Shown here: positions 8,923 to 24,742 of the stretch, in pieces
How the letters are laid out: each line of letters begins with the position of its first letter
Position numbering within the stretch: position 1 is the stretch's first letter
Source: an uncultured Planctomycetaceae bacterium
GTDB lineage: Bacteria; Planctomycetota; Planctomycetia; Pirellulales; UBA1268
Assembly (NCBI GenBank): GCA_903949225.1
Contig: CAJAYZ010000238.1
Coordinates: 1 to 37,560, forward strand
Direction: 5' to 3'
DNA length: 37,560 bases
Notes under the pieces: model-generated
Told to the model about the DNA's origin: nothing
What the model saw: the letters and a program-made list of their open reading frames with translations, nothing else
Databases searched by the model: none
Made by a program: the position numbers and the translations under genes

Positions 8923-9966
8923 ATGCACAGGTCCACTGGGAGCACCCGGGCCCCTCGAGGGGCGCGACCGATCCGCGCATCCCGCCGGGGAGCGGCGTGC
9001 CCTGCTGCCCTGTTGGCTGGCGCTCTTGTGGCGCTCGCTGGCTGCAAGACCGACCTCAACCAGCAACTCCTCGAACGGGAGCTGCGGATGCAGGAAGACC
9101 AGATCTACCACCTCCAGGACCAGCTCCAGTCGAGGAGTGCCCGCTTGGAGCGGACGGCAGGAGAGAACGAAAGCCTGCGGAGGCAGCTGGGCATCGGCGA
9201 AGGATCGTCAGCCCCGGCCCGAGCGTCTTCGGCGCCGACCTTCGTGCCCCCTCCTCCGCTGCCCAACGTGTCGGTGCCGGGGCTGACGGCGCCCGGGGGC
9301 TCAGGTGCCGCGCCGAGGGGCCTCCGCTTCGGGCCCGGTGGCGCCCCTTCATCGTCCCCGACGCTTCCCCCGCCCCTCACGCCGCCGCCGGCATCGCTGT
9401 CGGTCCCGCCGGGGGGAATGGTGCCGCCGAAGCTCGACGGTGTCCCCCCGCTCCCCAGCGCCGGGATGCCGCCCGCCGTGCGAAGGCTGTCGTTTGAGGA
9501 GAGTCTGGCCGGCGAGGCGCGGATCAGTCATCTCGTCGTCAACCCCGCGCGGACGGAGTGCTTCGATGCCGATGGCGATGGGGTGGCCGAGGGGCTCGCC
9601 CTCGTCGTCGAGCCCCGTGATGCCGACGAGCGCCTCGTGACGGCCGCCGGAGATGTCGTCGTGTTCGTCAATGATCCTGCCGTGCCACAGGGAGCGGGCC
9701 TGGTGCCGGCGGAGCCGACCGATCCCGGCGAGGGGGGCTGCATCGCCCGCTGGGACATCCCCGAGGCCGAGGCCCAGGGGCATTTTCGCCGCACGTCGCG
9801 GGCCCGCGGGCTCCACTTTCTCCTCCGCTGGCCCGGGCCCCCGCCCCAGTCGTCGACGGTCCATGTTCACGTCGTGATGACGACGTTCGACGGCAGCGTC
9901 CACCGGGTCGACGTGCCGGTGTCGGTGCACTCTTCCGGCGACATGCCGACGCACCCCACCGATTGA
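8923..9966 (+). CDS. Hypothetical lipoprotein with a coiled-coil segment, a Pro-rich linker and a C-terminal beta-rich domain
   Basis: The N-terminal signal has the lipobox LVALAGC. A heptad-like stretch LNQQLLERELRMQEDQIYHLQDQLQ is followed by PPPPLP-type low complexity. I recognised no family. Confidence 0.6.
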   Translation: MHRSTGSTRAPRGARPIRASRRGAACPAALLAGALVALAGCKTDLNQQLLERELRMQEDQIYHLQDQLQSRSARLERTAGENESLRRQLGIGEGSSAPARASSAPTFVPPPPLPNVSVPGLTAPGGSGAAPRGLRFGPGGAPSSSPTLPPPLTPPPASLSVPPGGMVPPKLDGVPPLPSAGMPPAVRRLSFEESLAGEARISHLVVNPARTECFDADGDGVAEGLALVVEPRDADERLVTAAGDVVVFVNDPAVPQGAGLVPAEPTDPGEGGCIARWDIPEAEAQGHFRRTSRARGLHFLLRWPGPPPQSSTVHVHVVMTTFDGSVHRVDVPVSVHSSGDMPTHPTD

Positions 9967-11371: not shown

Positions 11372-12061
11372 ATGTCGACCCCCGTCATCCAGCTCGAGAA
11401 GGTGCGGAAGTCATTCGCGATGCCGGGGGGGGACCGGGTCGACGTCCTCGACATCGAAGCCTTCACGGTTGCCCCCGGCGAGCACCTCGCCCTCGAGGGG
11501 CAGAGCGGGTCGGGAAAGTCGACGCTCCTCAACGTCATCTCCGGGATCACCCGCCCCGATGCCGGGAGGGTGGTCATCGATGGCATCGATCTGGCCCGGC
11601 TCGACGAGGCCCGTCGCGACCGGGTGCGGGCCGACAAGCTCGGGATGGTGTTTCAGTCGTTCAACCTCCTCCCCGGGTTTACCGCCCTGGAGAATGTCCT
11701 CGTGGCGATGGCCTTCGGGTCCGGGCGTCCCGACCGGTCGCGGGCCATGGAGCTCCTCAGCGCGGTCGACCTCGGCCACCGCCTTCACCATCGCCCCGCG
11801 GAGCTCTCCACCGGCCAGCAGCAACGCGTGGCCGTGGCCCGGGCCCTCGCCAACCGGCCGCGGGTCGTCCTCGCCGATGAGCCGACCGCCAGCATCGATG
11901 CCGCCCACCAGCAGCAGGTGATCGATCTCCTCCGCACGACCTGCACCGACCACGGCGTGGCGCTCGTCGTCGTCACGCATGCCCCGGAGGTGTCGGCCCA
12001 ATTCCCCCGCCGGCTCCGTCTCGAGGACTTCAACCGCGCCGCCGCCGTCCACAAGCGCTGA
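11372..12061 (+). CDS. ABC transporter ATP-binding protein (MacB/LolD/FtsE-type)
   Basis: Walker A GQSGSGKST, signature LSTGQQQRVAVARAL, Walker B VVLADEPT and H-loop VVVTHA. This is only the 3' 229 codons of the 618-aa track ORF. Confidence 0.9.
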   Translation: MSTPVIQLEKVRKSFAMPGGDRVDVLDIEAFTVAPGEHLALEGQSGSGKSTLLNVISGITRPDAGRVVIDGIDLARLDEARRDRVRADKLGMVFQSFNLLPGFTALENVLVAMAFGSGRPDRSRAMELLSAVDLGHRLHHRPAELSTGQQQRVAVARALANRPRVVLADEPTASIDAAHQQQVIDLLRTTCTDHGVALVVVTHAPEVSAQFPRRLRLEDFNRAAAVHKR

Positions 12062-12087
12062 CCGTCTCTCCCCGCTGGTCACTCCCC

Positions 12088-13425
12088 ATGAACCTCCTCG
12101 GCATCGCCTGGCGCAACATTCGCCAGCGCCCCCTCACCAGCGCCCTGACGGCGGTGTCGCTGGCGCTCGGCGTGGCGCTGGTCGTGGCGACGCTCGTCAC
12201 CGGGAGAATCGTCCAGCAGGCCTTCGAGTCGGGGGCTGGGCTCGGCTACAACATGATCGTGGGGGCGAAGGGGAGCCCCCTCCAGCTCGTCCTCAACACC
12301 GTCTACTTGATCAGCAAACCGATCGAGAACGTCGGCTGGGACTTCTATGAGGAGTTCCTCCCGGCGGCGCGGCGCGCCGACGGGGTCGACGGGAAGTATG
12401 CCGCGAGCACCGGCGTGGCCGTCCCGACCTGCATGGGGGACTACTACCGCAGCTTCCGGGTCGTGGGAACGAACTCCGATTTCTTTGGCCGGCTCACGCG
12501 AGGCGACGGCGAGCCGTTCCGGTTCGCGGCGGGAGAGAATCTCCGCGACGATGACTTCTTCGCCGGCGTGATCGGCGCGAGTGTCGCCGACACCCTCGGC
12601 CTCAAAGTGGGAGATCCGTTCGCCCCCACCCACGGCGCCGATGACGGCAAGGTGCACGACCCGTTTCATGTCGTGGGGATCCTCGAGCGCACCTGGACGC
12701 CGATCGACCGCGGTGTGTTTGTCAACATGGAGGGTTTCTACCTCCAGGATGGCCATGCCAAGCCTCTGCCGGACGGGGTGGAGCCGGAGGTGACAACGAC
12801 CGTAGCCGCAGATGGCCAGACGCCGCAGGGGCCGGTACCGCTCCCGGCAAGTCAGCGGGAAGTGACGGCGATCCTCCTCGAGACCGCATCGCTGCCGGGG
12901 TTGCCGCCGGAACTGACGGCGATGGGCCTGCGGACGGCGATCAACGAGGGGCGTGACGCCCAGGCGGCGCTCCCGGTGGCAGAGATTCGTCAGCTCCTCG
13001 ATCTCTTCGTCCGGCCCCTCGAGCTCGTCCTCCTCATGGTCACGGCGCTGGTCGTGCTCGTGTCGGCGCTCGGCATCCTCATCAGCATGGTCGGCTCGTC
13101 GCTCGAGCGGAGCCGCGATGTGGCGATCATGCGCGCCCTGGGGGCACGCCGCGGTCATGTCCTGGCGACGGTCCTCATCGAGGCTGTGCTCCTCGCTGTC
13201 GGCGGGGGGCTGGTCGGCTGGGTGCTCGGGCATGCAATCGTGGCGGCGATCGGGCCTTGGATCGCCGCCAGCGCGGGGGTCAGGGCCGGGTTTTTCTCGT
13301 CGGCGCCCGAGGCCGAGGTCCTTCTCGTCCCGTTCCTCGTCCTCCTGGCGATCCTCGCGGCCTTGCTCCCGGCGCTGGCCGCCTACCGCACCGATGTCTC
13401 CCGGTGGCTGCAGGGCCCCGGCTGA
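12088..13425 (+). CDS. FtsX-family ABC permease with MacB-like topology (TM1, a roughly 250-aa periplasmic domain, then 3 C-terminal TMs)
   Basis: The N-terminus MNLLGIAWRNIRQRPLTSALTAVSLALGVAL is typical of MacB/LolCE permeases. The FtsX region ...MRALGARRGHVLATVLIEAVLL... has three hydrophobic helices. The gene starts 26 nt after the ATPase gene. Confidence 0.85.
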   Translation: MNLLGIAWRNIRQRPLTSALTAVSLALGVALVVATLVTGRIVQQAFESGAGLGYNMIVGAKGSPLQLVLNTVYLISKPIENVGWDFYEEFLPAARRADGVDGKYAASTGVAVPTCMGDYYRSFRVVGTNSDFFGRLTRGDGEPFRFAAGENLRDDDFFAGVIGASVADTLGLKVGDPFAPTHGADDGKVHDPFHVVGILERTWTPIDRGVFVNMEGFYLQDGHAKPLPDGVEPEVTTTVAADGQTPQGPVPLPASQREVTAILLETASLPGLPPELTAMGLRTAINEGRDAQAALPVAEIRQLLDLFVRPLELVLLMVTALVVLVSALGILISMVGSSLERSRDVAIMRALGARRGHVLATVLIEAVLLAVGGGLVGWVLGHAIVAAIGPWIAASAGVRAGFFSSAPEAEVLLVPFLVLLAILAALLPALAAYRTDVSRWLQGPG

Positions 13426-13524
13426 GCCCTGCCGGTCCCCCCGGGCGTGGCACGCGGGAGAAAACGGGATGGCGGTGGAGAAGCGGATTTCCCCCGGCGT
13501 TCCTGAGCCTGCTAAAATCGGGCC

Positions 13525-15129
13525 ATGAAACCCAACTCCCGCTCCGCGCGCCTTTCCCGCCTCGTGGTCGCTCTCCTAACCGTCTTCTTCACCGGCAGGA
13601 TGCCGGCCGCGTCGGCGTGCCCGTTTTGTTCGGCCGTGTCGCTGACGTTCTCGCAGGAGATCGCGCAGAGTCAGGTGGCCGTGATCGCCCGGCTCGTCGA
13701 GCCCCCGACCACCGCGTCGCTGTCACCCCGGTCTGACGGCCCGCTCCCCAAGGGGCGGTTCGTGGTCGTCGAAGCGCTCAAAGGGAATGATCTGCTCGAG
13801 GGGGCGGAGCTCCTCGATGTCGATGGCGTCCGCCAGATCGAGACGATCATGCTCGAGGTCAAGCCCGCCGGCACGACCTATCTCCTCATGGCTGTCGAGC
13901 CCCCGAAGCTCGTCTGGTCGAGCCCGATCCCGGTCAGCGATCGCGGGATCGACTATCTCAAGAAGCTCGCCGACCTCCCGGCCAAGGGGGCCGATCGGTT
14001 GGCGTTCTTCCAGAAGTATCTCGAGGATGCCGACGACACCCTGGCGCGCGACGCCTATGACGAGTTTGCGGTTGCCCCCTACGACGATGTCCGCGGCCTC
14101 GAGAGCCGGATGGACCCGACGCAACTGCTCGCCTGGATCGAGAATCCGAAGGTGCCCGCCAACCGGCGTCGTCTCTACGCCACGATGCTCGGGGTCTGCG
14201 GCACCAAGGCCGACGCCGATCGCATCGGGGCGATCCTTGCCAACACCGAGCCCGATCCGGCCAACGCCGAGGTGCGTTCGGGCCTCGACGCCCTCATCGC
14301 CTGCTATGTCACCCTCAAGGGCCCCGAGGGGCTCGACATGGTCGACACCCAGTTCCTCGACCGCAAGGGGCGGAATGTTCCCTTCACCGAAACCTACGCA
14401 GCGGTGATGGCGCTGCGGTTCCTCGGCGAGGAATCGACGGTGGTGCCACGGGAGCGGGTCCTGCAGTCATTGCGGATCCTCCTCGGCGAGCCGAAGCTCG
14501 CCGACCTCGTCATCGCCGATCTCGCTCGCTGGGAGGATTGGTCGGTCGTCGACCGGCTCGGCGAACTCTTCGAGAAGGCCGACGCCGACAACCTCTTCGT
14601 CCGCGAGCCGGTCGTGAACTACCTCAAGGCCTGCCCCGATCCCCACGCCGCCGAGGTGCTTGCGAAGCTCGAGAAGCTCGATCCCGAGGCGGTCCGCCGG
14701 GCGGCGACACTGGCCGGCTTTGCGGCGGCGCTTGCCGTGCCGAAGCCGGCTGAGGGTGCCCCCGCGGCCACCGAATCCGACGGTGATCCCGGCGACCCGT
14801 CCTCTCAGCCCGGAGGCGCGGCGCCTGCCGTGACGAGCCCGCCGGCCACCGAAGTCTCGGCGGCCGAAGCGGCGCTGGCCGCCCGCATCCCCCCGGTGTT
14901 GGGCGACGAGGATGCCACGGACGAAACCGTGGCGATCGATCCTGCCCGCGTCGAGGCCGGAGGGGAGCTGAAGGCTACTCCGATGGCACCGGCCATCGTG
15001 AATGGTGGATCGACGCCCGCCGCCAATCCGTGGGTGTCGACCTTGGGGCGGTGGTGCGGCGTAGCCCTCCTGCTGGCGGCGGTGGCGGTGCTGTCTCGGA
15101 TGGCGATGCGATCCTCCGGCGCCGCGTGA
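13525..15129 (+). CDS. Exported hypothetical protein: signal peptide, CPFC motif at the predicted mature N-terminus, helical-repeat-like body, Pro/Ala-rich linker and a C-terminal TM anchor
   Basis: MKPNSRSARLSRLVVALLTVFFTGRMPAASA-CPFC (Cys codons at 13618-13629). The body is rich in short Leu/Ala/Asp helices. The C-terminus WCGVALLLAAVAVLSRMAMR is hydrophobic then basic. It is a clear paralog of the 19377-20594 product. Confidence 0.7.
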   Translation: MKPNSRSARLSRLVVALLTVFFTGRMPAASACPFCSAVSLTFSQEIAQSQVAVIARLVEPPTTASLSPRSDGPLPKGRFVVVEALKGNDLLEGAELLDVDGVRQIETIMLEVKPAGTTYLLMAVEPPKLVWSSPIPVSDRGIDYLKKLADLPAKGADRLAFFQKYLEDADDTLARDAYDEFAVAPYDDVRGLESRMDPTQLLAWIENPKVPANRRRLYATMLGVCGTKADADRIGAILANTEPDPANAEVRSGLDALIACYVTLKGPEGLDMVDTQFLDRKGRNVPFTETYAAVMALRFLGEESTVVPRERVLQSLRILLGEPKLADLVIADLARWEDWSVVDRLGELFEKADADNLFVREPVVNYLKACPDPHAAEVLAKLEKLDPEAVRRAATLAGFAAALAVPKPAEGAPAATESDGDPGDPSSQPGGAAPAVTSPPATEVSAAEAALAARIPPVLGDEDATDETVAIDPARVEAGGELKATPMAPAIVNGGSTPAANPWVSTLGRWCGVALLLAAVAVLSRMAMRSSGAA

Positions 15130-15199
15130 AGGGCGCCCGGCCTTCGGATGAGGTCCTCCCGTTCCGCGCGATCAGTCCCCTGTTCCCCGGGAAGTTTCC

Positions 15200-15886
15200 A
15201 TGGCTGCCGGTCTCTTCGATACGCCCGAGTCGTCGGCCTCGGGCGATCTTCCTCCGATCGACGATGGCTATCGTGCCTTCGGAGGGGTGACGATCGCTGC
15301 GACCGTGCTCGCGCTCCTCTCCCCCTTGGGCTTCATCGATTGGTGGCTCCTGACGGTGCCGCTGCTGGCGGTTGTCCTCGGGCTCGTCGGCTGGCGCGAC
15401 ATCCTCGCTCGCCCGGATGTCCTCGCCGGCAAGGTGCTGGCGATCGGCTCAATGGTCGTCGGCAGCCTCCTGTTCGCCGGCGGCCTTTGGTACCAAGCGA
15501 CGGTCTACGCTCGCGAACTGCCACCGGGATTCGAGCGCCTCAACTACGCGGCCCTGCAGCCCGGGGAAGGGGAGCCGGCGAACATGATCCCGGAGTCAGC
15601 GGTGAAGATGCACGGTCGCGACGTCCTCCTGAAAGGTTACATGTATCCGGGAAAACAGCAGCGCGGCATCCGCCAGTTCCTCCTCGTGCGCGACCAGGGG
15701 GATTGCTGCTTCGGTGGCAATCCGAAGATCACCGACCGGGTGCTCGTGCAGATGGCCGACAAGCAGATGATCGAGTACACGCCGCGATTGCGGAAGATCG
15801 CGGGCCGGTTCTCGATCCGTCCTGCCGGGGCCGTCGATGTCGACGGCGGGGTGTTCTATCACCTGGAGGATGCCAGTGTCCGCTGA
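15200..15886 (+). CDS. Membrane-anchored CCFG-motif protein (DUF3299-like)
   Basis: Hydrophobic helices (VTIAATVLALLSPLGFIDWWLLTVPLLAVVLGLVGW and VLAIGSMVVGSLLFAGGLW) are followed by GYMYPGKQQRGIRQFLLVRDQGDCCFGG (CC at 15704-15709). The family assignment rests on motif resemblance only. Confidence 0.65.
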   Translation: MAAGLFDTPESSASGDLPPIDDGYRAFGGVTIAATVLALLSPLGFIDWWLLTVPLLAVVLGLVGWRDILARPDVLAGKVLAIGSMVVGSLLFAGGLWYQATVYARELPPGFERLNYAALQPGEGEPANMIPESAVKMHGRDVLLKGYMYPGKQQRGIRQFLLVRDQGDCCFGGNPKITDRVLVQMADKQMIEYTPRLRKIAGRFSIRPAGAVDVDGGVFYHLEDASVR

Positions 15887-16478
15887 CCGCCACGCCCGCC
15901 GGTGGTGGGCACTCGCCCTGCTGCTGACCTCCGTCACGATCGGCTGCGCGCCGGCGGAATCTCGGGTCGCGCCGCAGCAGCGCCCGGCCACGGGGGCCAG
16001 GGAGACAGGATCGGCCGCCGCGGGCGATCTGGCGCAGGAAGAAGCAGCGGGCGCTGCAGCGCCGGTCGTCGCGGTGAAGCCCCCGGCTGTTGCCACGGGC
16101 GATGGAAGGGTGCGGGAGATCACGTTCGACGATCTCAAGCTGCCACTGGAGAAGGGGGAGCCGTTTGATCGCGGGATCCTGCCGCCGGCGGTCGACGCCC
16201 TCCAGGGGCAGCGGGTGAGGATCCGCGGCTACATCCTCCCCAGCTTCCAGCAGCGCGGGATCACCCAGTTCGTGCTCGTCCGCGACAACATGGAATGCTG
16301 TTTCGGTCCCGGCGCGCTCCTCCATGACTGCGTCGTCGTGCGGATGCGGCCGGGCAAGTCGGCCGATTTCTCGATCCGCCCGGTGGCCGTGGCGGGATCG
16401 TTCCGGCTCGAGGAGCTCAAGGGCCCCGACGGCAAGCACTTGGCCGTCTACGCCATCGACGGCGACGCCGTGGAGTAA
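15870..16478 (+). CDS. Lipoprotein-type CCFG-motif protein (DUF3299-like), tandem paralog of the previous gene
   Basis: The signal WWALALLLTSVTIGC has a lipobox. The core is GYILPSFQQRGITQFVLVRDNMECCFGPG. The ATG at 15870 overlaps the upstream stop codon (15884-15886) by 17 nt. The GTG at 15876 is an alternative start. Confidence 0.65.
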   Translation: MPVSADRHARRWWALALLLTSVTIGCAPAESRVAPQQRPATGARETGSAAAGDLAQEEAAGAAAPVVAVKPPAVATGDGRVREITFDDLKLPLEKGEPFDRGILPPAVDALQGQRVRIRGYILPSFQQRGITQFVLVRDNMECCFGPGALLHDCVVVRMRPGKSADFSIRPVAVAGSFRLEELKGPDGKHLAVYAIDGDAVE

Positions 16479-16589
16479 GCCCTTTCGGGCATCCGTGAAC
16501 CACAGGCGGGCGTCTGTTACCATCACTTTGGCCTTTGATCGGCACGCCCGCCGCGCTCTGCGGTGATCCTCACTGCCCCAACGCCCGCC

Positions 16590-17384
16590 ATGCCCTTCGA
16601 CCTCTCCTGGTTCTACGACATCCCGACAGCCCGGGCGGCGCTGCTCATGGTGGGGGCGTTCGTCGCCTTCTACTGGGCCGGGGCGGTGGTCGTGCGGCCG
16701 ATCCTGCGGATATTCGTCCGCCGGGCGCCGGGGCTCAACGACCTCATCGGCTACATCCTCTCCTGCTTCTGCGTGTTTTACGGCCTGCTCCTCGGCCTGA
16801 TCGCCGTCACGGCCTATCAGAACGTCGAGTCGGCGGAGCAGAACGTCACCCGCGAGGCCGCGGCCCTCTCGGCCCTCTATGAGGACATGTCACGATATCC
16901 CGAGCCCCACGGCCAGGATCTCCGCTGGCTGATCCGCGACTACACGCGCTACGTCATCAAATATGCCTGGCCGTTGCAGCAACAGGGAATCATTCCGGAG
17001 GAGGGCACGATCCATGCCGAGGCCCTCTTCGATCGGCTCCTCGACTTCCAGCCCAAGACTCCCGGCGAGGAGATCCTCCATGCCGAGGCGCTGCGGCAGA
17101 TCAATCACTTCCTCGAATGCCGCCGGCTTCGCCTCCATTCCGTGCGGGCAGGATTGCCGCGGGCGATGTGGATCGTGATGTTCGTCGGGGCGTTTTTCAA
17201 CATCCTCCTCTGCTGGATGTTCGACACTCGCTTCCTCACCCAGCTCGTTCTCGGCGGGATTCTGGCCGCGTATCTGGGCTTGATGATGTACCTCATCGTC
17301 GACATGAATCAGCCCTTCCGCGGCGAGGTGAGTGTTTCGCCTGAGGCTTTTGAATTGCTCTACCAGCGGATGCTCGAGGACTGA
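16590..17384 (+). CDS. DUF4239-like integral membrane protein
   Basis: An N-terminal TM, a central soluble helical region and two C-terminal TMs ending ...DMNQPFRGEVSVSPEAFE match my recollection of DUF4239 proteins. The GTG at 16563 is an alternative start. Confidence 0.6.
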   Translation: MPFDLSWFYDIPTARAALLMVGAFVAFYWAGAVVVRPILRIFVRRAPGLNDLIGYILSCFCVFYGLLLGLIAVTAYQNVESAEQNVTREAAALSALYEDMSRYPEPHGQDLRWLIRDYTRYVIKYAWPLQQQGIIPEEGTIHAEALFDRLLDFQPKTPGEEILHAEALRQINHFLECRRLRLHSVRAGLPRAMWIVMFVGAFFNILLCWMFDTRFLTQLVLGGILAAYLGLMMYLIVDMNQPFRGEVSVSPEAFELLYQRMLED

Positions 17385-17385
17385 C

Positions 17386-18708
17386 ATGCCGGTCCCCCCC
17401 GACACCCAGCCCCTCAATCGCGGCGCCGTCACCCGGCGTGAAGCGCTCCGGTCCGGGGTTGCTGCCACGCTTGCCGCCGCGCGGGTGCTGGCGCCTTCGT
17501 TGTTTGTCGGCTGTTCGCTCGGCATCCCGCCGCGGGCACCGACGGTGAGGATCGGGCTGCTCCATTCGCAGACCGGGCCGCTGGCGATCGGCTCGACGTC
17601 GCTGCGCGACGTCGAGCTCGATGCCGTGGAGCGCTTCAACGCCGCCGGCGGAATCCTCGGATTCTCGATCGATCCCCGCGCCCCCGACCCCCGGTCGCGG
17701 ACCGACCTGTTCCCCAAGCGGGCCACGACGCTCCTCGATGACGGGGCTGTGGCGCTGTTCGGTTGCTGGTCGAGCGCCAGCCGCAAGGCGGTGCTTCCGA
17801 TCGTCGAGGAGCGCGACAGCCTCCTCTTTTATCCGGTGCAGTATGAGGGGAACGAGAGCTCGCGAAACGTGATCTATGGCGGGCAGGTGCCCAACCAGCA
17901 GGTCCTCCCGGCCCTCGATTGGCTGCGGAGTGGGCCGGGGGGGGAGCGAAAGAAGTTTTTCCTCCTCGGCTCCGACTATGTCTACCCACGGACGACGAAC
18001 TTTATCGTGCGGAAGTGGCTTGCCGGCACCGGCGTCGAAATCGTCGGCGAGGAATATTTTTCCCTCGACAGCAAAGACTTCGCCCCGGTGGTAGCCCGCA
18101 TCCGCGAGCGCGGGGCCGACTGCATCCTCAATACCGTCAACGGCTCCGGGAACATCGCGCTGTTTGCGGCGCTGGCGGAGGCCGGGATCGATCCGGCGAA
18201 GGTTCCCCTGGTGTCGACGAGCGTCTCGGAGGACGACCTGCGGAGCATGCCGGCCGCCCATTCGGCTGGCCACTGGGTCCTGTCGAGCTACTTCCAGACC
18301 GTCGACACGCCCGCAAACGCCGCCTGGATGGCCGGCTTCCGTAGCGAGTTTGGCGAGGATCGCGTCTTCGGCGATTCGATGGAGGCCGCCTGGTGCCTGA
18401 TCAACCTCTGGAAGGTGGCGGTCGAGCAGGCAGGGTCGTTTAGCACCGAGGCGGTTCGCCAGGTGTTTGCCGCCGGGATCGGGTTCGATGGCCCAGGGGG
18501 ACGCATGACGATCGATCCCGCCACGCAGCACGCCACGAAACACTTCCGGCTGGGACGGGTGCGTCCCGATCGGCTCTGCGACGTCGTTGTTTCGTCGGAT
18601 GGTCCGCTCGCTCCCGACCCCTATCCGCAGGTCGCGTTCCCCGGGTGGAAATGCGATTGGACGAAGGGGGGGCTCCAGCCCGGCCAGGAGGTGTCGATCG
18701 ATGGTTGA
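17386..18708 (+). CDS. UrtA/AmiC-family (urea/short amide) periplasmic binding protein with a Tat-like signal and a lipobox-like Cys
   Basis: TRREALRSGVAATLAAARVLAPSLFVGC is followed by IGLLHSQTGPLAI..TSL.D.EL.AVE..NAAGGILG...LFGCWSSASRKAVLPIVEE...LFYPVQYEGNE...NQQ..PALDWL...FFLLGSDYVYPRTTN...SYFQTVDTPAN. This is strongly collinear with UrtA/AmiC. The ATG lies 1 nt after the upstream stop. Confidence 0.85.
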   Translation: MPVPPDTQPLNRGAVTRREALRSGVAATLAAARVLAPSLFVGCSLGIPPRAPTVRIGLLHSQTGPLAIGSTSLRDVELDAVERFNAAGGILGFSIDPRAPDPRSRTDLFPKRATTLLDDGAVALFGCWSSASRKAVLPIVEERDSLLFYPVQYEGNESSRNVIYGGQVPNQQVLPALDWLRSGPGGERKKFFLLGSDYVYPRTTNFIVRKWLAGTGVEIVGEEYFSLDSKDFAPVVARIRERGADCILNTVNGSGNIALFAALAEAGIDPAKVPLVSTSVSEDDLRSMPAAHSAGHWVLSSYFQTVDTPANAAWMAGFRSEFGEDRVFGDSMEAAWCLINLWKVAVEQAGSFSTEAVRQVFAAGIGFDGPGGRMTIDPATQHATKHFRLGRVRPDRLCDVVVSSDGPLAPDPYPQVAFPGWKCDWTKGGLQPGQEVSIDG

Positions 18709-19375
18709 GTTCGACATCGAGGTCTCCGAGGGATGCCGCTGGCTCAAGGTCATCCTCGACGACGATGACGTCCGCACCGAGCGCGGCGCGCTCTATCGGA
18801 TGAGCGGCGACATCGAGATGGACGTGCCGCTGCCGTCACCGCGGGCGATGTTTGTTTCGATGTTCTCCGACGAATCGGTGGTCCGGCCGCGGTACGTGGG
18901 CACGGGGGAGCTTTATCTCGATTCGACCTTCGGCGGCTACCACATCTTCGACGTCCAGCAGGGGGAGCGCTGGATCCTCGAGCATCGTTGCTTCTGGGCC
19001 TCCGAAGGGGAGGTGAAACTCGCGATCCACCGCGAGCGGCTCTGGACGTCGTACTGGGCCGGCGAGGGATTGCTCTGGTACAAGACGGCGCTGGTTGGTG
19101 AGGGGAAAGTGGTCCTGAGCGTCGACGGCCCTGTCGAGGAGATCGAGCTCGACAACGAGCGGGTCGTGCTCGACGGGGGATTCGCGGTGGCCCGGACCAG
19201 CGGGATCACGATGCGGATGAAGCGCCCCGCCCGCTCCTATCTAAGCCACTGGCTGTCCGGGCAGAAGCTGTCGTGCGTTTACGAAGGGACCGGACGGCTG
19301 TTCATCTGTGCCGTTCCTTACTGGCGGCAGCGATTGCAGAAGTCGAAGGAAGCCGACTCCCTTGCGTACGGCTGA
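18701..19375 (+). CDS. AIM24-family (DUF124) protein
   Basis: MVEFDIEV...LKVILDDDDVRTERGALYRMSGDIEMDV...GTGELYLDSTFGGYHIFDV..GERWILEHRCFWASEGEVKL...GEGKVVLSVDGPVEEIEL...VVLDGGFAVA fits the AIM24 pattern. AGGAGG lies 9 nt upstream. The start overlaps the binding-protein stop by 8 nt (ATGGTTGA). Confidence 0.7.
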   Translation: MVEFDIEVSEGCRWLKVILDDDDVRTERGALYRMSGDIEMDVPLPSPRAMFVSMFSDESVVRPRYVGTGELYLDSTFGGYHIFDVQQGERWILEHRCFWASEGEVKLAIHRERLWTSYWAGEGLLWYKTALVGEGKVVLSVDGPVEEIELDNERVVLDGGFAVARTSGITMRMKRPARSYLSHWLSGQKLSCVYEGTGRLFICAVPYWRQRLQKSKEADSLAYG

Positions 19376-19376
19376 G

Positions 19377-20594
19377 ATGCTTGGCCTCGATCACCTACCG
19401 GGCCGGTCAGGGCATGGGTGCCAATCGGATCGCTTTCCTATGCCGTCGGGCCGAGGGCCCGGAATCTTTCGGCTGCTCGGTCTCGCCGCAGTGCTCCTCA
19501 TCCTCCCGGCGATCTCGAGCGAAGCCTGTCCGTTCTGCGGGCCTGTTGGCGATTCGCTGGCCCGGCGCCGCGACTCGGCAGGCTACGTCTGTATCGCCGA
19601 GGCTGCGGATCGGGCCCGGCCCGACGCTTCCGGACTCCTCGCCGGCTCGTTCCGGGTGATCCAGGTGCTGCCCGACACTCCCGGCCGGGTCGACGGCGAG
19701 CCCCCCACGCTGGTCACCGCCCGGGTGGCAGCGCCGGTGGAGGGGACGGCGGTGCTGTTCGGATCGGCCGAGTCGCCCGTGCGCTGGACAGCGGTGGCGG
19801 CGGACGAGACGCTCCTCGGGCATGTCGTTACGGCGCCAGCGATCACGGAGCCTGTCGGCGAACGGCTCGCGTGGTTTGCTGCCCGCCTCGAGCATCCCGA
19901 GCCGGCGATCGCCGACGATGCCTTCGCGGAGTTTGCCGTCGCCCCTTTCCCGGCTGTCCGCGAGGCGGCGGCGGCACTCGCGGCGCGGCCTCTGGCGACC
20001 TGGGTGGCCGATCCTGCCACCGACCAACGGCGAAGGGGATTCTATGGACTGGCGCTCGGCGTCGTCGTGGCGGAGGGATCGTCCGGCGGGAAGAGGCTGT
20101 CGTCAGCCGCTCTCCGGGCGGCACTCGAGACGGCTGGCGGTGACTTCCGTGCCGGGGCTGACGGGCTGATGGCGGGGATCCTCGTCGCCGAGGGCGTCGA
20201 TGGGCTCGATTGGCTCGCCGACCGGGCCAGTCCCGATCGGCCGGTCGATCAGCGTCAGCTCCTTGCGGCCCTCCGTTTCGCCCGTGAGTATCTCACCGGG
20301 ACGATTCCCCCCGCGAGGATCTCCGCGGTGACGGCGGAACTCGCCCAAAGCCCGGCGGTGGCTGCCCTAGCGATCATCGATTTGGCCCGCGCGGAGGCTT
20401 GGGAAGAGGTCGATGCGGTGGCAGCGTGGTGGGATGCGGCCGCCGACGATCCGCTCATCCGTCGTGCCGTCGCCGGGTATCTCGTTGCCTGCCCGTCGGC
20501 TGCGGCGCGGGAGCACCTCGATCGGATTGGCCGAGAGGATCCGGCGGCCTTGGCCGCCGCCCGAGCGGCGGCGGACTTACCGCTGGGACGCTGA
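19377..20594 (+). CDS. Exported hypothetical protein, second CPFC-motif paralog (no C-terminal anchor)
   Basis: ...GIFRLLGLAAVLLILPAISSEA-CPFC (Cys codons at 19527-19538). It shares blocks with the 13525-15129 product (see findings). The ATG at 19377 is 1 nt after the AIM24 stop. The ATG at 19440 would give a more canonical signal peptide (MPSGRGPGIFRLLGLAAVLLIL...). Confidence 0.65.
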   Translation: MLGLDHLPGRSGHGCQSDRFPMPSGRGPGIFRLLGLAAVLLILPAISSEACPFCGPVGDSLARRRDSAGYVCIAEAADRARPDASGLLAGSFRVIQVLPDTPGRVDGEPPTLVTARVAAPVEGTAVLFGSAESPVRWTAVAADETLLGHVVTAPAITEPVGERLAWFAARLEHPEPAIADDAFAEFAVAPFPAVREAAAALAARPLATWVADPATDQRRRGFYGLALGVVVAEGSSGGKRLSSAALRAALETAGGDFRAGADGLMAGILVAEGVDGLDWLADRASPDRPVDQRQLLAALRFAREYLTGTIPPARISAVTAELAQSPAVAALAIIDLARAEAWEEVDAVAAWWDAAADDPLIRRAVAGYLVACPSAAAREHLDRIGREDPAALAAARAAADLPLGR

Positions 20595-20639: not shown

Positions 20640-22982
20640 TTACCGGCCCTGCGTTGCCGCGGCATCGGCGGGGGTGCTGATGACCCGTCCCGACGGAGCG
20701 CTTTCGGCCTTCCAGCCGGTGAGGGCATTGCCCCAGGGCTTTGCCGATTCCAGCGTGATCTGCGAGACCGGCATGAGCACCGACGGCACGGCCGGCGGGA
20801 GCAGCGCGGCGGCGGCGGGGCTGGCGGCCTTCGCGGGATTCGGCAGCGGAGCGGGCGTCGGAATCTCCTCGAGCGGATTGCCACCGGCCGGAGCCTTGCC
20901 GTCGCCGGCCGGCTTGGGCGCGGGGGTCGACGTCTCCTCGTTCGTGGCCGGATCACGGGGGGGGAGTTGCTGGGCCCCTGTCCCGGCGCCGATGCCGTCG
21001 AAGTCCTGCGTGATCGGCCCGCGGCTGAAGACGCCAGGGCGGGAGTGGCCGTAGTCGAGGAACAGGCTGGCGTCCCGCTGCCGGGCCCGGCGGTAGGAAT
21101 CGAAGTAGGCCTTGCCGGGCCACGGGCCTTCGGCGAGGAACACGCCGTTGTATTCGAGGAGCGAGCCTTTGCGGAAATGGAGCTGGGCGATCGAGCGGTT
21201 GTAATCGACGACCGAGCGGTAGTAGGCGCTCTCGGCGTCGGCCCGACGGCGCTGGGCGTCGAGGAGCTGGTCGAGGGTCACGGTGCCGGCATCATAGGCC
21301 GCCTGGACCGCCTCCACCTGCCGCTCGGAGGCAACGCGGCGATTGAAGTTTGTCTGCGAGAGGGCGAAGTTCGTGTCGACGTTCCGCACCGCTTCGACCA
21401 GCGCGTGCGACACTTCCATCTCCTCGTCTTGGAGCCGGGAGCGTTCACGGGCGAGCTGGAGCTGATAGTTGCGGACGGTGGAGAGCTCGCGGCGGAAGCC
21501 GATCGGCATGAGGAACTGTGCCCCGGCCTGCCATTCCTGAAACCTCCCGCTGGAGAGCGTCGAGTAGGCGTCGGTGCCGTTGAGCGGGTCGAGACCTTCG
21601 GCGTTGTAGGGGCTGTAGTTCTGATTGATGAGCTCCTGACCCATGCCGAGGAACCGGTAATAGCCGTTCATGTCGAGCCGGGGGAGAAGGAGGTTCTTCG
21701 AAGCAACGAGCTCGAGCTCCTTCTGCTTGACCACCCACTTCTGTCGACGGAGCTCCGCCGACCGGGAGAGCGATTCGACGAGCGACTGCTGCCAATCGAA
21801 GGTGACTCGGGCCGTCGTCGGCTCGTCGGAGGGGCGGATGAGCCGGCCGTCGGAGGCCGAGAGCCCCATCATGTAGCGAAGCCTGTTCTCGCTCCGGTAG
21901 ACGTCGGTGAGCGCGTTCTCAACGTCGCTGCGGAAGAAGAAGTACTGCTCGCGGGCCTGGGCCTCCTTGTCAGCTTCTCCGCCGCGCGACTGCTCGACGT
22001 AGAGGGCGTGGACCTTGCGCCATGCCTCCAGCGCGCTGTCGCGGCCGGCCTTGCGGGCCTCGAGATTGCGGTAGGCGAAGTAGAGTTCCCAGTACGCCTG
22101 CTCGGTGTCGCTGACCATATTGCGGACACCGATCTCGAAGTCGGCCAGCGACTGATCAGCGAGCACGCGGGCAATGAGCACGCCGCGGAAGTTAGGGCGA
22201 CCGTTGATGTTGTTGAAAGCGTCGGGGCCGGCGATCCGGTTGTAGGTCAGCCCCGCGCCCTGGAGGAGGGGCTGGTTGAAGGTGAAGTCGTAGTTGGTGA
22301 GCCATGTCGACGGCACGCCGTCTTGGCGGATTGGGGAGTTGTTATTGTCGTAGACGGTCTGGTTTTGGATCCCGAACGTGCTGCCGGTCGCCGACACCTT
22401 GCTGATCCCGGTCGTCCACGTGCCGATGTCGCCGAGGAGTTTCTGCTGGAAGATCTGCGTGCCGACGCCGCCGACGTTCTGCGGCCGGTTCTGCCGGGCC
22501 CAGGTGAGCGAGCTGGAGAGCTGGGCATCAAACGACGCAAGCGCGCTCTCGACGCCGCGGAAGGGGTCGGTCTCGCTGATCGCCGGATCGTAGACGGTGG
22601 GGTAGGCGGCCGGATTGGTGAGCAGCGACACCGCCGGCTCGCCGGCCTGGGGCCGTGGGCCACCGAAGCTCTGGAAGCGGCCTCCGAGGCTCCTGAGCAC
22701 TTTGCCATTCTCGAGTGCCGTCCGGATGGCGTCCTCGAGCGACACCTCCCAGACCTGGTCGAAGTTGGCGTTGGAGAGCGTGAGCGGCTCGATCGTGCCG
22801 GCCGCCTCGTCGAGCGGCTGGTGGACCGTGTCGGGGTACTCGATCTTCTGGATGGCACCGACGTAGTGCGAGAGGTCGCCGTCCTCGAAGAAGTAGAACG
22901 GCTGCCGCGGGGCGCAACCGCTGGCCACGAGCGTGAGGCTCGTCATGACCGTCCAGGCTCGTCGCAGCAGGAGGTTTGGCAC
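20640..22982 (-). CDS. TolC-family outer membrane efflux protein (lipoprotein type) with a long Pro/Ala-rich C-terminal tail
   Basis: A GTG start at 22982 gives (M)PNLLLRRAWTVMTSLTLVASGC. The body has the typical OEP repeats (LSLEDAIRTALENG..., FNQPLLQGAG, LADFEI..R....D.EQAYWELY.A..NLEA, ...AQLHFRKGSLLEYN). The last approximately 150 aa are P/A/G-rich. The ATG at 22946 is an alternative start. Confidence 0.8.
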   Translation of the reverse strand: MPNLLLRRAWTVMTSLTLVASGCAPRQPFYFFEDGDLSHYVGAIQKIEYPDTVHQPLDEAAGTIEPLTLSNANFDQVWEVSLEDAIRTALENGKVLRSLGGRFQSFGGPRPQAGEPAVSLLTNPAAYPTVYDPAISETDPFRGVESALASFDAQLSSSLTWARQNRPQNVGGVGTQIFQQKLLGDIGTWTTGISKVSATGSTFGIQNQTVYDNNNSPIRQDGVPSTWLTNYDFTFNQPLLQGAGLTYNRIAGPDAFNNINGRPNFRGVLIARVLADQSLADFEIGVRNMVSDTEQAYWELYFAYRNLEARKAGRDSALEAWRKVHALYVEQSRGGEADKEAQAREQYFFFRSDVENALTDVYRSENRLRYMMGLSASDGRLIRPSDEPTTARVTFDWQQSLVESLSRSAELRRQKWVVKQKELELVASKNLLLPRLDMNGYYRFLGMGQELINQNYSPYNAEGLDPLNGTDAYSTLSSGRFQEWQAGAQFLMPIGFRRELSTVRNYQLQLARERSRLQDEEMEVSHALVEAVRNVDTNFALSQTNFNRRVASERQVEAVQAAYDAGTVTLDQLLDAQRRRADAESAYYRSVVDYNRSIAQLHFRKGSLLEYNGVFLAEGPWPGKAYFDSYRRARQRDASLFLDYGHSRPGVFSRGPITQDFDGIGAGTGAQQLPPRDPATNEETSTPAPKPAGDGKAPAGGNPLEEIPTPAPLPNPAKAASPAAAALLPPAVPSVLMPVSQITLESAKPWGNALTGWKAESAPSGRVISTPADAAATQGR

Positions 22983-23034
22983 GGTTGGGGGTCCGGCGTA
23001 CGGGCATTGAGGATCACGGTGATTCAAAAGCTGC

Positions 23035-23132
23035 CGCTGCGCCCAAGGGGTTCGCCCGTCGAAGCCGACGGACCGATCCCGACGCAGTGCCCCCCGACGC
23101 TGCATCCGACTCGCGTGCACTTGGGCGCAGCG
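23035..23132. repeat. 13-bp perfect inverted repeat (CGCTGCGCCCAAG / CTTGGGCGCAGCG) flanking 72 nt
   Basis: The arms at 23035-23047 and 23120-23132 were read directly, with an internal small hairpin CGTCG-AAGC-CGACG. It lies between the apbE stop and the TolC-like start, both on the minus strand. Confidence 0.85.
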
Positions 23133-23248: not shown

Positions 23249-24256
23249 TTAGCGCTGTAGAGGGCGAGTGCGTTCCCCAACACCCGGCCAGCGACTCGTC
23301 TGCACCTCGCGGACGATCCTTTCACCGTCCCCGTCCACCGAAACGAACCGCCCGGCGCAGCCTGCCTGGTTTTCCAGGAGCGTCCGGCCGCGGACCGGCC
23401 CGAGGACATTCGCCGCGGTCGCCAGGGCATCGGCGGTGGTGGCGTCCGCGGCGATGACCGTCACCGCTGCCGGCCCGTCGATGCCGATCCCGGTGCGGGG
23501 ATCGACGATGTGGCTGTAGCGGCGGCCGCCGATCGCGACCGACTGCCTCGCATCCCCGCTGGTGGTGATCGCCGCGTGGGCGAGAAGCACCTCCCCGGTC
23601 ATGGCCGCCGGCGTGCCGGGGATCGGGTCGATCGCGATCCGCCACCCCTCCTCCCCGGGTGGCGCTCCCGAGGCTCCGACATCACCCGAGGCATCGACGA
23701 GGGCCGAGTCGATTCCCTGCTCGGAGAGGATTGCCAGGGCCCGGTCGATCGCATAGCCCATCCCAATGCCGCCGAGATCGAGTCGCATCCGCGGGCGGGT
23801 GAGCCGGACGCCGCGGGGGGCGGCGACGAGCACGAGGGCTCCGGCTCCCACCGCCGCCCGGGCGGCGTCGAGCTTCGCAGGGAGCGGGAGGGCACCGGAT
23901 CGGCGAGACTGACGCCAGAGGGTCGTCAGCGGCCCGACGGTCGGGTCGAAGGCACCGTCACTGGCGTCGCGGAACGCCACGGCGCGGGTGAGGACCTCCC
24001 ACATCTCGTCGCTCACTGGCACAGGGCTTTCCATCGGGGCCGCGGCCGAGAGCCGGGAGAGCTCGGAGTCGGGACGGTAGTCGGAGAGGATCGCCTCGAG
24101 CCGTTCGACCTCGTCGAGGGCCGCTGCCACCCCCCGCTCGCCGGCGGCAGGCCTGGCGGCGTAGACGGTGACGGTCCAGGGAACCCCCATCAGCCGCCGG
24201 CCGCCGGAGATGCGAACCAGCGGCACGTCGGCAGCCGACATGGTATTTTTCTTCAT
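23249..24256 (-). CDS. apbE: FAD:protein FMN transferase (ApbE family)
   Basis: RLMGVPWTVTVYA...ELSRL...FDPTVGPL..LW...LDLGGIGMGYAIDRA...SALVDASGD...HIVDPRTG... is collinear with ApbE. The ATG at 24256 is preceded by GGAGGGGAG. The upstream part of the 520-aa track ORF is an antisense shadow. Confidence 0.85.
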   Translation of the reverse strand: MKKNTMSAADVPLVRISGGRRLMGVPWTVTVYAARPAAGERGVAAALDEVERLEAILSDYRPDSELSRLSAAAPMESPVPVSDEMWEVLTRAVAFRDASDGAFDPTVGPLTTLWRQSRRSGALPLPAKLDAARAAVGAGALVLVAAPRGVRLTRPRMRLDLGGIGMGYAIDRALAILSEQGIDSALVDASGDVGASGAPPGEEGWRIAIDPIPGTPAAMTGEVLLAHAAITTSGDARQSVAIGGRRYSHIVDPRTGIGIDGPAAVTVIAADATTADALATAANVLGPVRGRTLLENQAGCAGRFVSVDGDGERIVREVQTSRWPGVGERTRPLQR

Positions 24257-24742
24257 ATGGAACTCTCCCCTCCGCCGGTCGTGATTCGTTTCGACTGCAC
24301 GCCCCTGCGTGCCCTCGCTCGTGCCGAGGTGCCGGCCGAGGCATCGCCCCGGTTCCGCGCGCTGGTCGGGCGGATGCAGGCCGCGGTCGCCAAGCATGGC
24401 GTCCGCAATGCCTATTATCTCACGAACGCCTCCTGCACGTTCCGGTTCACGAATGCCCCGGAGCGTGGATGGGTGGCCTTCGATGTCGAAGGAACCGTCC
24501 TGACCGACGATCTCGACACCCACACGGTGGGGAGCGATCTGACGGTGAAGCTCACCAAGGAAACCTGCGACTGGCTGACGCAGCCGGCCGTTGCCTGGCT
24601 CGACCTCAGCGTCCGCCGTGCGGTCGAGGCGGAGTTCGACCGCTACATCGCCGCCGGCGATCTGGGGCGGACGCTCGAGCGACTGGCCCGCGAACAGGCC
24701 GACAGCGATGCCGCCGGCGGGTTCCTCGGGATGAATCTGTAA
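24257..24742 (+). CDS. Hypothetical 161-aa protein, divergent from apbE
   Basis: This frame has strong G/C third-position bias from the ATG at 24257 to the TAA at 24740-24742. I recognised no family. The start is uncertain; the GTG at 24281 and the ATG at 24374 are alternatives. Confidence 0.5.
   Translation: MELSPPPVVIRFDCTPLRALARAEVPAEASPRFRALVGRMQAAVAKHGVRNAYYLTNASCTFRFTNAPERGWVAFDVEGTVLTDDLDTHTVGSDLTVKLTKETCDWLTQPAVAWLDLSVRRAVEAEFDRYIAAGDLGRTLERLAREQADSDAAGGFLGMNL

Follow-up and report, generated by a model that had tools for sequence, protein, structure and literature searches.

The Zur-regulated zrgABCDE operon of Vibrio carries, together with genes for an FtsX-type ATP-binding cassette (ABC) transporter, the DUF3299 gene zrgE, which is induced 76-fold by zinc limitation (PMC9817125). 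In Pseudomonas aeruginosa, PA4064/PA4065 has been modeled as a MacB-type transporter that affects cobalt and pyochelin handling and is implicated in cobalt-pyochelin export, and homologs of PA4066 in Proteobacteria are reported to occur, without exception, in association with FtsX-type ABC pairs (PMC11481552). PA4066 has an OB-like solved structure (PMC11481552, PMC8561739, PMC9820375), available as PDB entry 4hsp (PMC8561739). Judged by domain content, the ZrgABCDE/PA4063-PA4066 type is the closest known system to the locus described here, a row of nine co-directional genes (g1 to g9, positions 11372 to 20594, + strand) from an uncultured Planctomycetaceae bacterium of the order Pirellulales (GenBank assembly GCA_903949225.1, contig CAJAYZ010000238.1). 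The whole stretch of 37,560 nucleotides that was analyzed is referred to below as the window.

Like ZrgABCDE (V. cholerae, V. parahaemolyticus) and PA4063-PA4066, the row encodes its ATPase separately from a four-helix FtsX/MacB_PCD permease, the genes of this pair adjoin the gene for a periplasmic DUF3299 OB-fold protein (ZrgE or PA4066 there, g5 here), and the operon is without a MacA-type adaptor. The DUF3299 partner has no assigned function in either. An earlier, sequence-only reading of the row had proposed that all nine genes form one envelope system of a composition not previously described. The combination of a MacB-type ABC transporter with DUF3299 is in fact that of ZrgABCDE and PA4063-PA4066, and the part that is new consists of two proteins with a CPFC motif and a predicted HEAT solenoid. 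By comparison with related loci the row is composite, made up of a conserved six-gene core (g1 to g5 and g9) and three unrelated genes (g6 to g8) inserted in one lineage. The reading we prefer, with a probability of roughly 0.5, is that the core is a MacB-type ABC envelope module whose four exported partners handle what is likely a thiophilic metal, and that g6 to g8 are an unlinked insert.

ORF (open reading frame) analysis of the window returned nine + strand ORFs with third-position GC of 0.80-0.85, kept in more than 80 related loci, as the sequence-only reading had them. Window GC is 65-72%, and the content is typical of planctomycetes (PSCyt1/PSCyt2/PSD1, DUF1501 and giant TPR proteins). 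Families were assigned by Pfam and NCBIfam scans of the window ORFs against the cut-offs of the models. These scans agree with the earlier calls of a MacB-type ABC pair (g1, g2), two CPFC paralogs (g3, g9), two CCFG paralogs (g4, g5), a DUF4239-like membrane protein (g6) and an AIM24 protein (g8); the expected DUF3299 match was obtained for g5, and the CPFC proteins gave no informative Pfam match, as had been anticipated. The binding protein (g7), expected to match Peripla_BP_6, does belong to a periplasmic binding family, with Peripla_BP_5 scoring higher. The spacers between successive genes are 26, 99, 70, -17, 84 or 111, 1, -8 and 1 nt, as given before, except that the last depends on the start of g9. 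That start is most likely the ATG at 19440 rather than 19377, and the g8-g9 spacer therefore becomes ~64 nt. For the row as a whole, the families, the domain architecture, the invariance of the motifs, the co-occurrence of the genes and the separability of the two units are shown by the data.

The product of g1 (11372..12061, +) is an ABC ATPase of the LolD/MacB/FtsE type (Pfam ABC_tran, 120 bits). Its top NCBIfam models are LolD, YbbA, DevA, FtsE and MacB, with every score under the cut-off of the model (for LolD, 193.8 bits against 307.75). The product of g2 (12088..13425, +) is a permease of the FtsX family, with four helices and a periplasmic core domain like that of MacB, and its FtsX (56.7 bits) and MacB_PCD (43.6 bits) scores both exceed the Pfam cut-offs; the closest solved chains are 5xu1, MacB, YtrF and LolE. 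Scores for g2 are far under the lolCE, FtsX and MacB equivalog cut-offs, with 31.8 bits against 362.45 for lolCE (TIGR02212) and 16-24 bits against 225-255 for the NCBIfam FtsX models. On these family assignments, g1 and g2 make up an ABC transporter of the split MacB type (type VII, mechanotransmission), in which g2 contributes a large periplasmic domain.

The CPFC-HEAT protein g3 (13525..15129, +) has a signal peptide, a CPFC motif (13618-13629) and a C-terminal membrane helix, and nothing beyond a sub-threshold HEAT_2 match was found for it in Pfam. An AlphaFold2 model (mean predicted local distance difference test score, pLDDT, 78.6) places, from N- to C-terminus, the signal helix, a low-confidence tail carrying CPFC, a beta domain at ~40-130, a HEAT/ARM solenoid at 139-403, a disordered linker of ~100 residues and the membrane helix. 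Foldseek returned generic ARM/HEAT matches only, plus an OB-like match for the N-domain (1jb3), a weak one to agrin NtA/N-TIMP. A TIMP-like reading of this domain was dropped, as partner cysteines are missing from the beta domain. Residues C32-P33-F34-C35 directly follow the predicted signal-peptide cleavage site and are invariant in the close alignment and near-invariant in the wide one, and C370-P371 is also near-invariant. The motif is found in ~95% of family homologs, and in nearly all of them the residue preceding its first cysteine is Ala or Gly.

The second CPFC gene, g9 (19440..20594, +; CPFC at 19527-19538), encodes a soluble paralog with 28% identity to g3 over ~390 aa (E 2e-21), no Pfam match and the architecture of g3 minus the membrane anchor. 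Read from the ATG at 19440, it begins with a canonical signal peptide, MPSGRGPGIFRLLGLAAVLLILPAISSEA, cleaved just before CPFC; the residue at -2 to the cysteine is Glu, which is atypical for a lipobox. Searches with g3 gathered 2211 clusters at 50% identity (E<=1e-3), 632 of them at E<=1e-30, from Planctomycetia, Pirellulales and Planctomycetaceae, all of whose members are called hypothetical. By this count the CPFC proteins make up a large family that is unannotated and comprises more than 2000 sequence clusters. No Pfam model matched the family, a sequence search of the PDB with its profile found no relative, and profile-profile comparison showed no relationship to the CCFG family.

The CCFG proteins are encoded by g4 (15200..15886, +; CCFG at 15704-15715) and g5 (15870..16478, +; CCFG at 16296-16307), paralogs with 36% identity over 88 aa (E 3e-17). 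They have in common a C-terminal domain of ~100 residues with an invariant "LVRD..xCCFG" motif, in which CCFG is invariant across all homologs seen. In g4 this DUF3299-like domain follows a multi-helix N-terminal membrane anchor, with a weak DUF4190 match on the helices, and in g5, an exported DUF3299 protein, a lipobox-like sequence (TIGC) points to what is probably a lipoprotein. DUF3299 (PF11736) is matched by g5 at 24.6-24.8 bits, just over the gathering cut-off of 22, and g5 also matches 4hsp (E 6e-4). In that alignment the first Cys of the CC pair falls on the single Cys of PA4066, with Cys-x-His there and Cys-Cys here. All 14 of the g4/g5-type proteins compared matched DUF3299 at E<=5, and 12 at E<=0.01. 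Note that the g4 of the window, scanned alone, gave no DUF3299 match at E<=0.01; it is assigned through its paralogy with g5, through weak matches (E<=5) and through a g4-type homolog in locus L109 that scores 24.4 bits. On this evidence the CCFG proteins are classed as divergent DUF3299 OB-fold proteins, of the family of ZrgE and PA4066. The two cysteines of the CC pair are the only ones in g4, so that the pair cannot be explained as an ordinary structural disulfide to some distant cysteine, and a ligand or redox role for the pair is thereby supported. Three of the 14 proteins also weakly match Pfam DUF1980_C, which hints at a relationship between DUF3299 and the C-terminal domain of the DUF1980/TIGR03943 putative permease subunits. 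Those proteins also carry a CC motif, and nothing usable on DUF1980/TIGR03943 was found in the literature.

Conservation was compared at increasing distance. The close set consists of the 80 best genome loci, in which g3 is 57-98% identical. Most of these loci have the nine-gene order, and the flanks, tig-clpP-gap and ApbE, are retained in the set as well; the order there should therefore be considered general synteny that says little on function, and relatives at >=57% identity were rejected as evidence for linkage. In L015, L044 and L067 the block of gap, g1 and g2 is inverted, with the ABC pair divergent from the CPFC/CCFG genes and still adjacent to them. Distant genome loci have g3 homologs of 41-50% identity and unrelated flanks. 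The order ABC-FtsX-CPFC-g4-g5-g9 is found in two of these (L085, L089) and ABC-FtsX-CPFC-CPFC-g4-g5 in a third (L086), and L087 and L090 carry CPFC(-CPFC)-g4, the nearest 10 kb being free of ABC genes.

With the CCFG domain of a distant member as the seed, a metagenome scan gave 80 loci (soil, marine and freshwater), and neighborhoods were counted in the 30 that were >=6 kb long, 28 of which could be evaluated for a CPFC gene. The CPFC gene lies directly upstream of a membrane-anchored g4-like gene in 27 of the 28. An ABC pair is upstream in 6/30 (L119, L121, L139, L151, L164 and L167), and in the loci that are ABC-free the CPFC and CCFG families are the sole recurring ones. The distant g1 homologs associated with the full module are 57-60% identical to g1, and g9 directly follows g5 in L085, L089, L119, L139 and L164. 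Across distant lineages, CPFC and CCFG proteins co-occur near-perfectly. By these counts, g1 to g5 and g9 form a widely conserved, uncharacterized envelope module of Planctomycetota, in which the CPFC gene and the membrane-anchored CCFG gene are the tightest link. Neighborhood conservation across the phylum, the check that the one-system proposal called for, thus held for these six genes and failed for g6 to g8 and the TolC-like gene downstream. Three layers can be recognized on this basis: the invariant pair of a CPFC-HEAT protein and a membrane-anchored CC-DUF3299 protein; the six-gene form (type A), in which the pair is joined by the MacB-type ABC transporter and by one further protein each of the CC-DUF3299 and CPFC kinds; and additions specific to a freshwater Pirellulales clade, namely the inserted g6-g8 cassette and the neighboring TolC-like gene.

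Transcription signals were compared as well. The extended -10-like pattern TGnTAnnnT has two sites only between 11000 and 21000, against a background of 0.011 per 100 nt in these loci. One (TGCTAAAAT, 13510..13518, +) precedes the start codon of g3 by 6 nt and is also kept in close relatives, and the other (TGTTACCAT, 16515..16523, +) is ahead of g6. Among related loci the pattern occurs upstream of g6 in 51 of 59 and upstream of g3 in 15 of 79, and upstream of g2, g4, g5, g7, g8 or g9 in 0-1 loci. Relatives have a clear -35/-10 pair just before g1, and where g1-g2 is inverted (L015, L044, L067) g3 needs a promoter of its own. From these elements there are probably at least three promoters in the row, one for g1-g2, one for g3-g5 and one for g6 onward. 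A scan of the row for terminators and sigma-70 consensus sites gave nothing above chance, so that transcription may read through from one unit to the next.

The -10 boxes at 13510-13518 in the window and ahead of g1 in relatives lie only ~6-12 nt before start codons and suggest that transcripts in the clade are leaderless or have very short leaders. In ~12 of 55 relatives the -35 box ahead of g1 is overlapped by a palindrome (for example CAAAAACG-CC-CGTTTTTG) that is absent from the region upstream of g1 in the window. It lies ~52 nt upstream of the g1 start in L041, L035, L019, L001, L020, L073, L083 and L076, with variants such as GAAATC-N5-GATTTC, and could be an operator.

The cassette begins with g6 (16563..17384, +; alternative start 16590), a membrane protein of the family PF14023 (208 bits), formerly DUF4239 and now named Bestrophin-like. 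Searches with g6 returned same-clade matches only (>=67% identity), and the literature on DUF4239/PF14023 yielded nothing usable. The next gene, g7 (17386..18708, +), encodes a UrtA/AmiC-like binding protein with a twin-arginine translocation (Tat) signal and a lipobox (Peripla_BP_5, 407 bits). It scores 394 bits against the UrtA equivalog TIGR03407, below the cut-off of 492.75, and 282-325 bits against UrtA structures; the closest structures are 8tg1, UrtA proteins and AmiC. No urtBCDE genes (branched-chain-type permease and ATPase genes) were found among the window ORFs scanned. The last gene, g8 (18701..19375, +), encodes an AIM24-family protein (111.8 bits) in which no export signal was found. 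The overlap of g7 and g8, estimated by tblastn at -6 to -7 nt in 48/48 related loci, is -8 nt in the window. All three genes are missing from L047, L059, L063, L065 and L068, where g9 directly follows g5, as well as from every distant genome locus, and g6, g7, g8 and the OEP (TolC-like) gene are each found in 0/30 of the metagenome loci. By this distribution, g6 to g8 are a lineage-specific three-gene insert with its own putative promoter and no demonstrable link to the core.

For the core, the following mechanism may be envisaged. The g4 protein would be held in the inner membrane by its N-terminal helices and g5 would probably be a lipoprotein, each displaying a vicinal Cys-Cys, and g3 would be tethered by its C-terminal helix, with g9 soluble and the mature N-terminus of both predicted to be Cys-Pro-Phe-Cys. 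The permease would receive the DUF3299 proteins on its periplasmic domain, an arrangement that has been proposed for ZrgE/PA4066 with ZrgB/PA4065. Through g2, the hydrolysis of ATP by g1 would be transmitted to the periplasmic assembly, where cysteine pairs on both the DUF3299 and the CPFC proteins would bind the cargo and hand it on. A thiophilic metal, as the ion or as a chelate, would be the most likely cargo, and cysteine ligands would stand in for the His-rich ZrgA/PA4063. We infer the partnership of the CPFC/CCFG proteins with the g2 permease by analogy with these systems, and a thiol-based metal or redox role is plausible, being favored by the Zrg analogy and the invariant cysteine pairs. 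More tentatively, and with clearly more doubt than assurance, the CPFC-HEAT and CC-DUF3299 proteins might form an unrecognized periplasmic cysteine relay across Planctomycetota that can be coupled to a MacB-type mechanotransmission ABC transporter; to this relay a HEAT scaffold would contribute a CxxC at its mature N-terminus, and an OB fold would contribute a vicinal Cys-Cys. If so, ATP would power the handing over, across the periplasm, of a thiophilic metal (or of reducing equivalents), and the DUF3299/ZrgE/PA4066 family would gain its first mechanistic role.

Several observations weigh against a metal-handling ABC module. At least 11 of the 30 metagenome loci have no ABC pair in 3.7-8.6 kb upstream, and from the ABC-free loci together with the inverted g1-g2 of L015, L044 and L067 the ABC pair may be a facultative neighbor of the CPFC-CCFG pair. 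Metal-homeostasis genes (Zur/Fur, CobW, ZnuA, TonB receptor, P-type ATPase) were absent near the module in the lineages examined, with 20 flanking genes searched in the distant loci. In all lineages its neighbors have housekeeping functions (SmpB, RidA, pyruvate kinase, UvrC, NAD synthase, SecA), a context that lends no support to a thiol-based metal or redox role. No Zur/Fur-like operator (AT-rich palindrome) was found upstream of g1 in the window, and the CPFC segment of the g3 model has a pLDDT of only about 57-61. Among the described relatives, PA4066 showed no evident zinc binding (PMC11481552) and zrgE knockouts were without phenotype (PMC9820375).

Other explanations were weighed against the same data. 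A single dedicated system of all nine genes, to which the TolC-like gene might also belong, would suit their tight or overlapping spacing, above all from g6 to g9, the nine-gene order of most close loci and the absence of terminator-like sites above chance. The comparative data nevertheless contradict it: the 80 loci that keep the order keep the tig-clpP-gap and ApbE flanks as well, g6-g8 are missing from five of them and from all loci whose CPFC homologs are <=50% identical, g6 has its own conserved promoter-like motif, and the OEP gene is absent elsewhere. The one-system proposal of the sequence-only reading is therefore very unlikely to hold. Type VII ABC systems such as LolCDE and FtsEX commonly act on periplasmic protein partners, and the g1-g2 pair might act in the same way on lipoprotein partners (the CPFC proteins and g5), the cysteines then serving acylation or sorting. 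The Ala or Gly before the first cysteine of nearly all CPFC homologs, the lipobox-like junctions of g5, g7 and the OEP protein, and housekeeping neighbors such as SecA and SmpB would all fit such a role, but it would leave the invariant P-F-C and the CC pair unexplained. The Glu at -2 in g9 does not suit it, a lipid-anchored N-terminus combined with a C-terminal helix in g3 would be unusual, and g2 scores far below the lolCE, FtsX and MacB models; we consider it quite unlikely. The ABC pair and the CPFC/CCFG genes might instead be functionally independent neighbors, as the ABC-free occurrences in L087, L090 and the metagenome loci, the inversion of g1-g2 in three loci and the separate promoter-like elements of g1 and g3 would allow. 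Yet the inverted block stays adjacent, the ABC, FtsX, CPFC and CCFG genes recur side by side amid unrelated flanks (L085, L086, L089, L119, L164, L167), and in Proteobacteria DUF3299 is described as invariably accompanied by FtsX-type ABC pairs (PMC11481552). Even the odd locus L109 pairs an ABC ATPase with a g4-like gene, and independence is on balance improbable.

The cysteine pairs could also belong to a periplasmic thiol-disulfide relay or quality-control system, with the ABC pair optional, and not act as metal ligands. CPYC and CPFC are redox-active motifs in glutaredoxins, and the CP[FY]C of these proteins resembles glutaredoxin and Dsb-type active sites. An invariant C-P-x-C at the mature N-terminus of g3 and g9, an invariant vicinal CC in g4 and g5, a context that is housekeeping and not metal-regulated, and a CPFC-CCFG pair that exists without adjacent ABC genes would all be expected of such a system. 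The fold speaks against it. No thioredoxin fold was found around CPFC in the AlphaFold2 model, by Foldseek or by Pfam scan, and a thioredoxin-type oxidoreductase identity was rejected, the modeled fold being an OB-like beta domain plus a HEAT solenoid. The module has no Dsb or thioredoxin domains, and the DUF3299 relatives in Zrg and PA4063-PA4066 are tied to metal starvation (PMC9817125, PMC11481552). A purely redox role is on these grounds unlikely, and a metal-handling MacB-type module with an unlinked g6-g8 insert remains the reading we prefer.

Outside the row, the convergent gene downstream (20640..23120, -) encodes a TolC-like outer-membrane lipoprotein (Pfam OEP, 69.5 bits; lipobox LVASGC), and a HlyD-type domain was found neither in the window ORFs scanned nor in the called genes of L085, L086 and L089; for the window, both points agree with what had been read from the sequence. 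At 826 aa the TolC-like protein is much longer than a typical OEP protein, with a C-terminal tail of ~150 residues rich in Pro and Ala. Its gene is kept as a neighbor in the close clade only, and no OEP/TolC homolog lies beside the module in L085-L090 or the 30 metagenome loci. The convergent downstream genes of distant loci were considered as cryptic TolC-like proteins and rejected, having no OEP match. Beyond it lie an ApbE flavin-transferase gene (23249-24400, -), with no obvious flavoprotein target nearby, and a 162-aa ORF (24254-24742, +) that overlaps or is divergent to the ApbE gene and has no Pfam match; both are conserved in L001 and L002. Upstream of the row, 8923-9966 (+) encodes a 347-aa protein with a coiled-coil N-terminal part, a Pro-rich middle and no Pfam match, which is syntenic between clpP2 and gap in all close relatives at 36-94% identity.

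Three observations concern individual loci of the comparison. In L109 (9058-10684) an ABC ATPase gene is followed immediately by the g4-like gene (DUF4190 plus DUF3299), with no recognizable FtsX permease or CPFC gene. In two related lineages, a PQQ_2/BamB-like beta-propeller gene lies divergently upstream of an ABC-free CPFC-CCFG module (L087, 8160-9689, -; L091, 6110-7669, -). Records titled 'Candidatus Kuenenia stuttgartiensis' (L004, L009, L010, L012, L016, L037, L041) or 'uncultured Chitinophaga' (L013) are metagenome-assembled genomes with a 68% GC locus of Pirellulales type and proteins up to 98% identical to those of the window, and their names are probably taxonomic mislabels.

Set beside known systems, the row resembles MacAB-TolC in its MacB-type permease (periplasmic core plus FtsX domain) and, in the window, in the adjoining TolC-like lipoprotein gene. 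Unlike MacAB-TolC, it has its ATPase and permease on separate polypeptides, no HlyD/MacA adaptor among the window ORFs scanned, and a TolC-like gene not kept beside the module outside the close clade; with no adaptor found and that gene not conserved, MacAB-TolC identity was rejected. LolCDE and FtsEX are alike in ATPase type and permease architecture, and the idea of cytoplasmic ATP hydrolysis driving the work of periplasmic partners carries over, but no LolA, EnvC or PcsB-type partner is present here, and identity with either was rejected because the equivalog scores are far below the cut-offs. In the cassette, g7 is like UrtA/AmiC in its Peripla_BP_5 domain and UrtA structure matches, but is coupled to Bestrophin-like and AIM24 genes, with no urtBCDE or amiR nearby. 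In Mer-type thiol relays, MerP carries a CxxC, MerT a vicinal CC and MerA a C-terminal CC. The combination of CxxC and vicinal Cys-Cys on exported or membrane proteins recalls these relays and would suit hand-over of a thiophilic metal, although there is no kinship of sequence or fold, no MerR/MerA and no resistance-island context, the locus being housekeeping-like.

Compared with ZrgABCDE/PA4063-PA4066, the row lacks the His-rich zinc-binding ZrgA/PA4063 (DUF2796) and ZrgD (DUF2607); no DUF2796 domain or His-rich loops were found in the nine products, nor DUF2796 in the flanking ORFs. No Zur box or metal-related context was detected here, and, unlike those systems, the module is also found in places where no ABC genes adjoin it. 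DUF3299 is represented by a pair of paralogs, of which one is membrane-anchored and both have Cys-Cys against the Cys-x-His of PA4066, and the two CPFC-HEAT proteins are without a Zrg counterpart. The findings overturn nothing; they define a widespread unannotated cysteine-motif module, the minimal form of which is one CPFC gene plus one CC-DUF3299 gene, and they illustrate that tight spacing in a nine-gene row does not make one system, since comparative data separate core from insert. The pairing of DUF3299 with a MacB-like ABC transporter, known from the zinc-starvation regulons of pathogens, recurs here in a distant phylum with cysteine-based partners, and the module offers a second, independent entry point to the roles of DUF3299 and type VII ABC systems in the periplasm.

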